Assembly: GCA_035328385.1 (NCBI GenBank)
Contig: DAOLIU010000001.1
Location: 2,612-66,611 of the forward strand
Direction: 5' to 3'
DNA length: 64,000 bases
Origin: Nitrospira sp.
GTDB lineage: Bacteria; Nitrospirota; Nitrospiria; Nitrospirales; Nitrospiraceae
The notes under the pieces were generated by a model. It was given only the letters and a program-made list of their open reading frames with translations, ran no database searches and was not told the origin of the DNA. A program made the translations under genes and the position numbers. Positions 20,455 through 22,852 of the stretch are shown in pieces. Numbering within the stretch: position 1 is the first letter of the stretch; the number at the start of each line of letters is the position of its first letter.

Positions 20455-21582
20455 TCAATCCGTCGGCTTCCGGTAGACCTGCCAAATACGGCTGCTGGCT
20501 TTTTCAGTATTGGGGAGGAATTCCTTATCGAACCAGTCCCTCAGCTGCCTCGGGGTCTTGCGGACGGCCTGGCCATCCTGGATTTCAAAATACTCGCGTC
20601 GGGCGCCCCCCGAGGTAACGTGGACCGCGATGAGAAATGTGTGGAAGCTCACGGCGCTGGCCAGGAAGAAATACCATCCGTCGCCGGCATCTGACAGCCG
20701 GTCGAACACCGATACGGGATCGGGCGTATGGTGGCCTTTGTCGGCCGAGCCCGTCCAACGGAGCACGGTGACGGGTCCGACCAAGCCTTCGAGACGCATC
20801 TCGGAAGCCATGATGGACAGCGTGCCGCCGCCGTGGGCTTGCTTCTTTTCCAGGCGCTCCTTGGCGACTTGGTTGTAGCGTTTCAGGGCGTCAGCAAGCC
20901 GGGATTTTTCGCCGGCGAAGAGCTCCGGCAGTCCTTCGTTGGCCAGAAAGTTCAGACACTGACCGAATTTGGTCTCCTTCGCCGCCTTGGAGAGTCGCGC
21001 GTGGATCCTGCTGCCTGTCTTTTCATCGAAGCGGCCTCGCAACGATTCTTCTTTATCTGATTGCCGGATGGCGTCCGTCACGATTTCGATCATCCGGTTC
21101 ATCTTCGTCGGATGTCCGAATGCCGGCCACAATACGAGGATCCATTCCATCATCTTGATCTCGGCAACCGACCGGCCGCCGAGCAGGCCTTCGAGTTTCA
21201 CGCGGTCAGAAGCGGACAGTGACACGCCGCCCCCTTTTCGAACGTCCTTGACAAAATCGGTGAATTCCTCGGCCAGCGACGTGCTCTTTCCCGAACCGGG
21301 AGACGTGCCGCTTGATGGGGACTTCACGATTGGCCTGACCATCGTCCGGAAGCCGGTCCATTCGTCGGCCAGCCGCCGGAAATCGGCCTCCTTGGGGTCG
21401 AGTGCGCGCCCGGTATCTCCGGTCATTCGCTCGGGATGGTGCATAAAAAAGACGAGATTGGTCAGGTCGTCGACATTCTTCACGCCACCGTCAATCGCCT
21501 GGGTTACCGCTAGCGGCCAGAGAATCGCGCCTTGGTGAAAAGTGGTTCGGGTATCGGCTGGAAAATTGGCCAATCGGAACAT
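20455..21582 (-). CDS. Uncharacterised protein (375 aa), partner of the MACPF-like gene; the C-terminal domain has a single Cys in a GQC context plus downstream His/Asp
   Basis: AGGAGGG sits 6 nt before the ATG, 64 nt downstream of the preceding gene on the same strand. Composition is coherent and non-repetitive. Function is not assignable from sequence alone. Confidence 0.6.
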   Translation of the reverse strand: MFRLANFPADTRTTFHQGAILWPLAVTQAIDGGVKNVDDLTNLVFFMHHPERMTGDTGRALDPKEADFRRLADEWTGFRTMVRPIVKSPSSGTSPGSGKSTSLAEEFTDFVKDVRKGGGVSLSASDRVKLEGLLGGRSVAEIKMMEWILVLWPAFGHPTKMNRMIEIVTDAIRQSDKEESLRGRFDEKTGSRIHARLSKAAKETKFGQCLNFLANEGLPELFAGEKSRLADALKRYNQVAKERLEKKQAHGGGTLSIMASEMRLEGLVGPVTVLRWTGSADKGHHTPDPVSVFDRLSDAGDGWYFFLASAVSFHTFLIAVHVTSGGARREYFEIQDGQAVRKTPRQLRDWFDKEFLPNTEKASSRIWQVYRKPTD

Positions 21583-21646
21583 ACGGCCCTCCTATTTCAG
21601 AGGCTTCCGGAGAGTTGTGGATCACGCCTATACGCCTGTTCCTCGG

Positions 21647-22852
21647 TCAACGGGCTCCCCGTGCCACCGCAGAGCTCTTGCTGACGCGCTGAGCCTTCAT
21701 GCGTCGCTGCGCCATCGCCTGCACCAGGGCTTTTTCTTTCGGCCTCTGTAACTTTAACGTTCCGACGAAGTGTACGATTTTCACCGGAGTTGAGGGCTTT
21801 TTCTTCAGTGATTTGATGTTGGCGATGACCGATTCAGAGTGAACGGCGGGCAATTGCGCTTCCTTTGGATTGTCCACGGCATGTGAGGCTGCGTCATAGA
21901 GGGCATCAATGTCCTTCTCCAAGGTATTCCGCCATTCATCGAGCTTCCCGGTTGGAATCGGTTCATAGGCTCTGATGTTGTTTGTTACCAACTCGAGATC
22001 GTTCAGGGCAGCGTCGTATCGGATCACCAGCTGGGCCGCCTCGTTGAGCACCCGCTTCTGTTGTTTGAAGTCCAGGAAGTTGGGCGCATCCGGCAGCGGA
22101 AGCGTCTTGTAGGTTGCCACTAGACAACTGTAGGGGATCGGATTCCGTGCGATGATGTCAGGGAAGGCTTTCAACCGAGCCGTGGCCTCCTCGATCGTCG
22201 GCGTGAGCGATGCTTCGTTGCCTTTTCCGCCGCTCTGCAGCATGGCGACGCTGAATTCACACGTGGACGAGGATTGCTTGACAACCTTGTCCACGCTGAC
22301 GCTCACGGATCCGCCGCCGACCAAGAACTGGACGCCGGCCTTCACGTCGGCTCCAACCTTGCGGGCTTCATCTCTCGAACTCGATGTAATGCTGATGACG
22401 ATGTAGAACTGGCCGCCGTTCTGAAACCCCCGGACGAACGAGTCGCCGTAGGCTTCGCGGAACCGCTCGGCCTGTCCTTTGGAAAGCAAGGCAGCGGCAT
22501 CGGGGAGCATCGTCGGGTGCAAGGTTTGTAGGAAGCTGTTGACCACCGTGCATCGTCCCACGACATAGATGGACTGAGTGTTGACATGCAGGGACTGAGA
22601 AAACTGAAACTTGGCACTGGCGCTGCCAAACATGTAGCGTGCATTCGCTTTGACATCGACATCGAGTGCATCATAAAAGTCTTCGACCGATTCGATCATG
22701 CTGTAGTTGTAAGAAACGTTCTGACCTCCGGCCTGCGTGACGGGCTGAATATCGCCTGGTTTGACTGCAATGCCCATGGGCGTACCCGTCGATTCATCCA
22801 CGCCGACGCCAAAATCAAACCCTTGGTTATAGTCCAGCATCTCGGTGCTCAT
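21647..22852 (-). CDS. Divergent MACPF/perforin-like pore-forming-domain protein with a C-terminal helical extension (401 aa, no signal peptide)
   Basis: AAAGGAGAAACC lies before the ATG. N-terminal LDYNQGFDFGVGVD. YGDSFVRGFQNGG (aa 135-147) has the exact spacing of the MACPF motif (Y/W)-G-(T/S)-H-(F/Y)-x6-G-G. Flanking Ser/Gly/Val-rich alternating segments. Confidence 0.55.
   Translation of the reverse strand: MSTEMLDYNQGFDFGVGVDESTGTPMGIAVKPGDIQPVTQAGGQNVSYNYSMIESVEDFYDALDVDVKANARYMFGSASAKFQFSQSLHVNTQSIYVVGRCTVVNSFLQTLHPTMLPDAAALLSKGQAERFREAYGDSFVRGFQNGGQFYIVISITSSSRDEARKVGADVKAGVQFLVGGGSVSVSVDKVVKQSSSTCEFSVAMLQSGGKGNEASLTPTIEEATARLKAFPDIIARNPIPYSCLVATYKTLPLPDAPNFLDFKQQKRVLNEAAQLVIRYDAALNDLELVTNNIRAYEPIPTGKLDEWRNTLEKDIDALYDAASHAVDNPKEAQLPAVHSESVIANIKSLKKKPSTPVKIVHFVGTLKLQRPKEKALVQAMAQRRMKAQRVSKSSAVARGAR

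Follow-up and report, generated by a model that had tools for sequence, protein, structure and literature searches.

In Streptococcus pyogenes, the nga-ifs-slo operon places the gene for a pore-former of the MACPF/CDC (cholesterol-dependent cytolysin) superfamily, streptolysin O (SLO), beside that for an enzymatic toxin, the NADase, which carries an N-terminal translocation/binding domain ahead of its catalytic domain and is delivered by SLO into the target cell (PMC4742715, PMC9887584). Here we describe a pair of genes, A and B, in a 64-kb stretch of Nitrospira sp. DNA (contig DAOLIU010000001.1, positions 2,612 to 66,611; hereafter the window), which resembles that arrangement in setting the gene of a predicted MACPF-family pore-former beside that of a predicted effector. 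Our preferred reading, held tentatively and at something short of even confidence, is that A–B is a horizontally mobile two-gene binary-toxin cassette, in which A would supply the pore or entry route and B the enzymatic payload. The likeness to SLO/NADase has its limits: the streptococcal proteins are Sec-secreted and accompanied by the immunity factor IFS, whereas A and B have neither signal peptide nor immunity gene and their delivery is our own deduction; and SLO is of the CDC type, whereas A is a MACPF protein and B is predicted to be a cysteine protease rather than an NADase.

An N-terminal DUF4157 followed by a C-terminal toxin domain is the architecture of the toxins associated with extracellular contractile injection systems (eCIS-associated toxins, EATs; Geller et al. 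2021, PMC8213781), and the C-terminal domain of DUF4157 proteins is homologous to that of B. B itself, however, has no DUF4157, lies outside any contractile injection system (CIS) locus and sits beside a MACPF gene, and as far as could be told its domain is not among the characterised EAT toxin domains. Mcf1 of Photorhabdus and MCF of the Vibrio MARTX toxin, the latter a cysteine-protease effector working inside host cells (PMC6731672, PMC10153396, PMC10716152), are delivered cysteine-protease toxin domains and give the best structural match to a model of B, but the match is weak (template-modelling (TM) score ~0.2) and without sequence similarity, and a dependence on ARF/Rab is not inferable for B. 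Bacterial gasdermin–protease modules (PMC10153256) and Pepco/EACC1 systems (PMC12642450) likewise combine a signal-less pore-former with an adjacent protease, mobile islands and a possible inhibitory C-terminal peptide; by contrast, A is a MACPF protein, B is of another protease type and without a sensor, and partner swaps leave the tail of A unchanged. The fungal toxins Aeg-S/Aeg-L and those of the pleurotolysin type, the BSAPs of Bacteroidales, CDC-like proteins (CDCLs; PMC11169675, PMC12853789) and the insecticidal Mpf2Ba1/GNIP1Aa, two-component or antibacterial toxins among them, act on other cells, as we propose for A. Aeg-L, Mpf2Ba1 and GNIP1Aa give the best alignments to the A profile, and some MACPF/CDC-like toxins are encoded on mobile elements or, for a CDCL, activated by a protease. 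In the two-component toxins of this kind, however, the pore-former is paired not with an enzyme but with an aegerolysin or a second pore component; CDCLs and BSAPs carry lipoprotein or Sec signals and come with immunity or receptor genes, all of which A lacks; and A has a polybasic tail where MACPF toxins have a beta-rich receptor-binding domain.

The cassette has pieces of each of these closest systems and fits none. No description of a bacterial MACPF-plus-protease gene pair was found in PADLOC or the searchable literature, and an earlier note on this DNA, made from its letters alone, had called the arrangement undescribed as far as known, with which the lack of any match in PADLOC, Pfam or NCBIfam agrees. 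The parts of the cassette in the window are the following.

21647-22852, minus strand: gene A, encoding a predicted MACPF-family pore-forming protein of 401 aa without a signal peptide
20455-21582, minus strand: gene B, encoding a predicted modular effector of 375 aa
21583-21646, minus strand: A–B spacer of 64 nt, containing the Shine–Dalgarno (SD) sequence of B
22860-22865, minus strand: SD sequence of A, AAGGAG, 7 nt before the ATG of A
21588-21593, minus strand: SD sequence of B, AGGAGG, 5 nt before the ATG of B
22853-23075, minus strand: region of ~220 nt upstream of A, moving together with the cassette at some loci; putative promoter

These coordinates and SD sites agree with the two co-oriented minus-strand genes of 401 and 375 aa, 64 nt apart and with strong SDs, that the note had described. 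Ratios of nonsynonymous to synonymous substitution (dN/dS) against orthologues were 0.057–0.071 for A and 0.105–0.157 for B, indicating purifying selection on both, and we therefore take A and B to be functional genes, not chance open reading frames (ORFs). Scans for sigma-70 promoters and intrinsic terminators around the cassette gave nothing above shuffled expectation.

Protein A is a MACPF-family protein, a fold assignment made from sequence profiles only. It carries the signature Y135-G-D-S-F-V-R-G-F-Q-N-G146-G147 (pattern YGDSFx6GG), a variant of (Y/W)-G-(T/S)-H-(F/Y)-x6-G-G in which D-S replaces T/S-H, and G136, G146 and G147 were invariant in alignments of 36 and of 79 diverse family members. 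Amphipathic stretches of alternating hydrophobic and polar residues (~60-97 and 158-200) stand where the transmembrane hairpins TMH1 and TMH2 are expected. Searched alone against PDB sequences, A gave weak MACPF matches, to Aeg-L (E = 7e-4), the large subunit of the Alternaria pore-forming toxin Aeg-S/Aeg-L (PMC13341504), and then to C9 and PLP1; a profile of 79 A relatives matched the solved MACPF proteins Aeg-L (1.2e-13), Mpf2Ba1 (1.3e-7), PLP1 (2e-4) and GNIP1Aa (1e-3). A itself had no match in Pfam, PF01823 (MACPF) included, at E ≤ 1, and none in NCBIfam or PADLOC, while 14 of the 79 relatives individually matched the Pfam MACPF model (E ≤ 0.01; best 3.8e-5). By these profiles the A family is a divergent MACPF branch, one that escapes the Pfam model. 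Signature, family profile and relatives together bear out the MACPF hallmarks, without a signal peptide, that had earlier been seen in A.

22088-22831, minus strand: MACPF core, A residues 8-255, by alignment to Aeg-L and Mpf2Ba1
22412-22450, minus strand: MACPF signature of A, by family alignments
21848-22087, minus strand: helical region kept family-wide, A residues 256-335, by alignment and by profile matches reaching ~335
21650-21847, minus strand: lineage-specific polybasic tail, A residues 336-401, ~65 aa

Neither a signal peptide nor a transmembrane or hydrophobic segment was found in A, and a cytoplasmic location is suggested by the missing signal peptide, a family-wide trait: no more than 30 residues precede the conserved core in 141 of 153 family members, leaving no room for a signal peptide, and signal-peptide or lipoprotein-like N-termini were seen in 4 of the 153. 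The family is large. A profile search of 1.84 billion cluster representatives returned 2,924 relatives at E ≤ 1e-3 and 249 at E ≤ 1e-30 (a family of ~2,900, counted as clusters at 50% identity), which have residues ~8-335 of A in common. They come from Actinomycetota, Bacillota, Bacteroidota, Cyanobacteria, Nitrospirota and Proteobacteria, with hosts including Streptomyces, Nocardia, Mucilaginibacter, cyanobacteria, Bacillus (B. thuringiensis plasmids among them) and plasmids of Clostridium botulinum/sporogenes, and are almost always labelled ‘hypothetical’ in the databases. Many carry C-terminal PASTA, beta/gamma-crystallin, leucine-rich repeat (LRR), LGFP, jacalin, Kelch or B-lectin domains. 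Scans of metagenome contigs for A relatives gave nothing confirmable.

The C-terminal extension of A, put at about 150 aa in the earlier note, turned out shorter. Its basic end is indeed lineage-specific (residues 336-401), with 16 K/R against 1 D/E in the last 60 aa, but residues ~255-335 belong to the family core; because these are conserved across thousands of family members, the true extension is only ~65 aa. The tail stays conserved whichever partner gene lies downstream. In the helical region, a pair of cysteines (C-x6/7-C) covaries across the family (both present in 71 members, neither in 54, only the first in 5 and only the second in 0); because it covaries, the pair probably forms a disulfide, in proteins mostly without a signal peptide. 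Cys pair and lectin-type domains together point to extracellular targets for much of the A family. A is a member of a Cys-less subgroup, and its polybasic tail stands where relatives have a binding domain.

One member of the A family, P0076 (968 aa), is recorded from an assembly of the fern Adiantum nelumboides, with two matched stretches and on an 874-kb contig; this record is either contamination or a eukaryotic acquisition of the bacterial MACPF family.

Protein B gave an AlphaFold2 (AF2) model with a pLDDT (predicted local distance difference test) of 83, and its parts are as follows.

21322-21582, minus strand: helical N-terminal domain, B residues 1-87, by alignment; model helices within 9-86
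21277-21321, minus strand: Ser/Gly/Pro-rich disordered linker, B residues 88-102, by sequence and by pLDDT <50 at 88-100
20458-21276, minus strand: conserved toxin-type domain, B residues 103-375, by homology to DUF4157/eCIS-core fusion proteins and by Foldseek
20956-20958, minus strand: codon TGT of Cys209, the only Cys in B, in an FGQC context and at the start of helix 209-221; candidate nucleophile
20641-20643, minus strand: codon CAC of His314, in SFHTF at the start of strand 315-323; candidate general base

The conserved domain, built of helices plus a sheet in the model, was found in only 38 proteins among 5.8 billion (5.8e9) searched. These form three groups: the Nitrospira-type 375-aa proteins, at least 11 proteins with an N-terminal PF13699 (DUF4157/eCIS_core), and a few short proteins with other N-termini. 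Over residues ~105-375, B is 40–51% identical to the C-terminal domains of the DUF4157 fusions (E 1e-60 to 1e-122). Three of the four fusions inspected (L009, L010 and L015) lie in CIS operons with Pvc16_N, AAA ATPase, CIS tube, gpV, gp25 and baseplate genes, and the fourth lies on a short contig beside another DUF4157 gene. The N-terminal domain of B was seen only in Nitrospira-type B proteins and sits where the CIS-encoded relatives have DUF4157; residues 1-102 had no match in Pfam and hence hold no DUF4157, and no CIS genes lie near B in the window or at the other Nitrospira loci.

In alignments of 19 and of 8 diverse homologues, C209, H250, H285, H314, H321, E333 and Q335 were invariant. 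In the model, H321, E333 and Q335 lie on adjacent strands (E333 and Q335 on strand 328-335), and C209 opening a helix and H314 opening a beta-strand would make a papain-like arrangement. A Foldseek search of the PDB with this model returned Mcf1 (8p50; E 2.2e-3, prob 0.84), MCF (6ii2/6ii6; 5e-2) and many ubiquitin-specific proteases (USPs; 0.3–1). There was no meaningful match in the viral structure library BFVD and no match to B in Pfam, NCBIfam or PADLOC, and neither B nor a profile of its domain found anything below E 0.1 among PDB sequences. From motif and secondary structure only, B is plausibly a Cys-His (papain-like) hydrolase, not a member of a characterised peptidase family. The earlier note had seen a single Cys in a GQC context, now found invariant as C209, and had suggested a CHAP/papain-like Cys-His hydrolase; the papain-like part gains plausibility from the invariant C209 and H314, but there was no match to CHAP or to any curated peptidase, and the fold comparison it had proposed did yield Mcf1/MCF and USPs, though weakly. 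B has no signal peptide or transmembrane segment and no recognisable sensor or repeat domain.

At one Microcoleus locus (L014 1846-5636), two adjacent DUF4157/eCIS_core proteins of 665 aa and 579 aa are encoded, and a B-type domain ends only the second; CIS cargo proteins that differ in their C-terminal domains are thus encoded here in tandem.

At every Nitrospira locus with a full-length close B orthologue (83–87% identity to B) and enough flank, A lies directly upstream in the same order and orientation. These loci are the window, L005/L011, L012, L013, L016 (the chromosome of Nitrospira sp. DJ), L027 and one Logan contig, where the pair is known from gene calls only. The spacer ranges from 13 to 310 nt, and spacings of 13–64 nt in several loci suggest co-transcription of A and B. 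In all-against-all blastn, the loci had only the cassette in common, together with up to ~220 nt upstream (~215–225 nt in comparisons of L027 with the window and of L005 with L013), and at least six of its insertion contexts in Nitrospira are unrelated to one another. As homology is limited to the cassette in these contexts, A–B was inherited and moved as a unit. In the window it lies in an island of lower G+C, as had been noted before: 0.53–0.60 over ~18.5–26 kb of the window against 0.63–0.67 in the flanks, with third-codon-position G+C (GC3) of 0.69 for A and 0.72 for B against 0.80–0.86 for host genes. The conservation of the two genes as neighbours, which the earlier note had put forward for checking, is thus found across genomes, but the enrichment near known defence genes is not: no known defence genes flank any compared locus, where the neighbours are housekeeping, hypothetical or mobile-element genes, and PADLOC was negative.

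Other genes were also found behind A. In a sister clade of A (78–84% identity), it is followed by p244, by p193 and, in one lineage, by p175, in a discrete three- or four-gene cassette that occupies two contexts, one of them adjoining a Prim-Pol/DUF927 gene. The C-terminal domain of p244 has a weak match to NlpC/P60 (E 0.093) and one to PHROG 329 ‘minor tail protein’ (2.4e-5), and p244 is probably NlpC/P60-like; p193 contains TCWAAA...SHAVVVYG, with only motif-level resemblance to Cys peptidases. A single fold family for all A partners is unproven, hhalign showing p244 and p193 as unrelated to the B family. Directly after an intact A that is the most divergent of the close orthologues (72% identity) comes a 46-codon ORF 80% identical to B residues 1-45. 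From this identity it is a truncated B remnant, and the payload gene was displaced; behind it lie p426 (weak PG_binding_1 match) and p482, a PG_binding_1 (5.5e-12) plus Trypsin_2 protein. On this branch dN/dS of A is 0.17 against 0.06, ~3-fold higher.

L001 10001-12763; L007 2410-5937; L028; L029: alternative cassettes A-p244-p193, with blastn homology ending at the cassette
L017 1580-1720; L018 4121-4261: B remnant, the 46-codon ORF after the A orthologue

Such exchange raises the question of whether A and B are coupled at all, or merely share a mobile fragment as toxins or cargo genes with separate roles, such as orphan effectors that serve a CIS or other system encoded elsewhere. That each gene is found without the other, that the spacer is so variable, that ranking the loci by identity gives slightly different orders for A and for B, that the relatives of B are CIS cargo and that distant A-family genes are mostly solitary would all suit this explanation. 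We nonetheless consider it quite unlikely, since adjacency, order and orientation are kept in at least six contexts while homology stops at the cassette borders, and the short spacing in several loci suggests co-transcription; moreover, B has lost DUF4157 and gained a private N-terminal domain, Nitrospira-type B proteins are nearly all A-linked, and selection on A is relaxed where B was lost.

The alternative partners bear also on the earlier suggestion of a holin/endolysin-like pair, in which a MACPF pore would let signal-less muralytic enzymes reach the peptidoglycan, for programmed lysis or as an antibacterial weapon. These partners are wall-related (p244 NlpC/P60-like, p482 with PG_binding_1 and Trypsin_2, p426 with a weak PG_binding_1 match), 13 of 79 A relatives have PASTA and 3 have LGFP wall-binding domains, and all cassette proteins lack a signal peptide, as endolysins do. 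B, however, is unlike any amidase, CHAP or NlpC/P60 family, its nearest folds being the protein-cleaving MCF and USP; tblastn of 50,697 phage genomes and a search of PHROGs found no relatives of A or B; p426 and p482 follow a truncated B and may have no connection with the cassette; and no lysis regulator, prophage or tailocin context was found in the window. The suggestion, weakened in this way, seems to us very unlikely.

We favour the binary toxin because the exchange of the N-terminal module of B and the replaceable gene behind A match the behaviour of a delivery module and its payloads. A would oligomerise into a large beta-barrel pore in the target membrane, its polybasic tail taking the place of the lectin- or PASTA-type targeting domains of relatives. 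B, as a papain-like, MCF-like cysteine protease, would be the enzymatic payload, in which the DUF4157 CIS-loading module has been exchanged for a 100-aa N-terminal domain and linker that may couple B to A. By the logic of perforin/granzyme, or of the cytolysin-mediated translocation of streptolysin O/NADase, A would give B entry into another cell, a protist grazer or a competing bacterium being candidate targets. The place of B behind A would be open to other hydrolase cassettes, the NlpC/P60-like p244 plus p193, rather as happens in polymorphic toxin loci. Release from the producer would be non-classical, whether by lysis, in vesicles or through a system encoded elsewhere. The lectin, PASTA, LGFP, crystallin and LRR domains of A relatives, their Cys pair and the four signal-bearing N-termini point the same way, and the plasmid and transposon association of the A family fits toxins. 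We also count for the toxin the absence of defence linkage and of phage relatives and the negative PADLOC result. Interaction of A with B, translocation and toxicity are proposed by analogy.

A number of observations weigh against a binary toxin. The pairing of A and B is not obligate: A occurs with other partners or a truncated B, and a full-length B at 64% identity is encoded without an A gene (L019 3257-5156), directly downstream of a fragment of a REP-associated tyrosine transposase (NCBIfam 4.4e-9). No MACPF gene lies beside the distant B-domain genes at seven loci, and next to distant A-family genes, examined on five plasmids and a Spirillospora chromosome, no partner recurs and none is B-like; these genes are mostly solitary, some of them on plasmids and transposon-associated. 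Sec, Tat and lipoprotein signals are absent from both proteins, the pair has no linked secretion system or CIS in the window or at the other A–B loci, and no conserved immunity gene was found next to the cassette at the compared loci. The Nitrospira A has Ala at both positions of the family Cys pair (A325/A332, window ~21857-21880), and anionic bacterial membranes, bound from inside, would be a fitting target for its polybasic tail. The structural footing is uneven as well, with an AF2 model of A from a 12-sequence alignment that is unusable (pLDDT 44), low TM-scores (0.1–0.2) for the Foldseek matches of B, and no sequence match of B to characterised peptidases in Pfam, NCBIfam or PDB sequences.

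Two distant A-family genes lie near a MacB-type ABC ATPase and an FtsX-like permease (L004 6267-9189, Spirillospora; L024 91-2875, B. thuringiensis pBT62B), and in Spirillospora a PG_binding_1 protein is also encoded nearby. The MacB/FtsX-like genes could be for export or self-protection; with two cases, the association may be coincidence.

Some of the same features would suit a self-destructive defence, the other model of the earlier note, in which phage infection leads B to cut an inhibitory C-terminal tail from A, which then opens pores in the inner membrane from the cytoplasmic side and kills the cell, as in gasdermin-based abortive infection. Both proteins are without a signal peptide; in A the putative disulfide pair is missing and a lineage-specific tail follows the conserved core; a predicted Cys protease lies directly downstream of A in at least six contexts; and one alternative A neighbourhood includes a trypsin-like protease. 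The mobile islands, with integrase, Prim-Pol and transposase genes, look like defence islands, and protease-licensed pore formers are widespread in bacteria (PMC12642450, PMC10153256). Against this, the catalytic domain of B is a CIS-toxin cargo domain and no known activator protease, being of neither caspase, subtilase, trypsin nor CHAT type, and B has no recognisable sensor or repeat domain. The tail of A is equally conserved with the unrelated partners p244 and p193, and B is found without A and A with B deleted, so that pairing is not obligate. PADLOC gave 0 matches for A and B, known defence genes flank no locus, and A relatives have lectin or PASTA targeting domains and in some cases signal peptides. 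We now judge such abortive infection unlikely, and less likely than the binary toxin, the function of A–B being in either case a prediction; and that a MACPF protein acts as a cytoplasmic suicide executioner licensed by a co-encoded cysteine protease we think rather improbable. The evidence points instead to the binary offensive toxin, a third model outside the two of the earlier note, and the probability left over from all these readings goes to functions outside them.

Most bacterial MACPF proteins are without a known function, and the A family, very large as it is, is labelled ‘hypothetical’ in databases; the Nitrospira cassette is the first case we have found of a signal-less MACPF protein coupled genetically to a CIS-type enzymatic toxin domain. 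As a binary toxin, A–B would be the parallel in bacteria to perforin/granzyme delivery and would give an eCIS-type payload a new route that needs no CIS, bearing on how nitrifiers deal with grazers and competitors in biofilms and wastewater sludge. Were it gasdermin-like, protease-licensed pore-forming cell death would extend to the perforin fold, and with a cytoplasmic MACPF executioner both gasdermins and perforins would have prokaryotic protease-controlled cell-death ancestors. Either way, the cassette is a small, tractable two-gene system for the role of cytoplasmically made bacterial MACPF proteins.

Elsewhere in the window are genes for a non-ribosomal peptide synthetase-like protein, RND and MFS pumps, AsmA/YhdP, an M24 peptidase, RtcB, a TPR protein, a cupin, a PhnB-like protein, two GT2 glycosyltransferases, a sigma-54 regulator, a histidine kinase, GlyS, PPDK, RibD and transketolase. 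CIS, type VI secretion system (T6SS), phage and tRNA genes were found nowhere in its 64 kb, in keeping with the absence of secretion, phage and T6SS genes previously remarked on near the cassette. An HlyD gene 6.6 kb from the cassette was considered as part of a type I secretion system and rejected, as it belongs to an MFS/HlyD/OprM-type efflux pump. This tripartite pump (window 29497-35106, minus strand) consists of an HlyD-family adaptor, an OprM/VceC-type outer-membrane factor (31013-33061; match to PDB 1yc9, E 1e-68) and an MFS transporter. As ~540 nt are common to the ORFs 31013-33061 and 32524-35106, the mechanical ORF list must have at least one of the two starts wrong.

The low-GC3 island (~19100-26000) also holds the cupin, PhnB-like (3-dmu-9_3-mt) and two GT2 glycosyltransferase genes, in mixed orientations and with GC3 of 0.63–0.70; none of these neighbours is common to the other A–B loci. 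A search for insertion signatures (flanking direct or inverted repeats, att sites, tRNA) found chance-level short repeats only and no tRNA, and the idea of an integron cassette was dropped, gene orientations being mixed and attC-like repeats not seen.

Some 35 kb from the A–B cassette (window 57481-58881, plus strand) lies a gene for a 466-aa caspase (Peptidase_C14, 6.3e-13) with C-terminal TPR repeats, which resembles the NCBIfam family ‘caspase, EACC1-associated type’ (E 1.1e-12; 48 bits, below the cutoff of 140). Downstream of it are small co-oriented ORFs of 129, 215, 224 and 491 aa (58935-62135), the 129-aa ORF being without a PDB relative. The caspase and the ORFs that follow it may make up a real defence module of the protease-effector type, as reported in PMC12642450.

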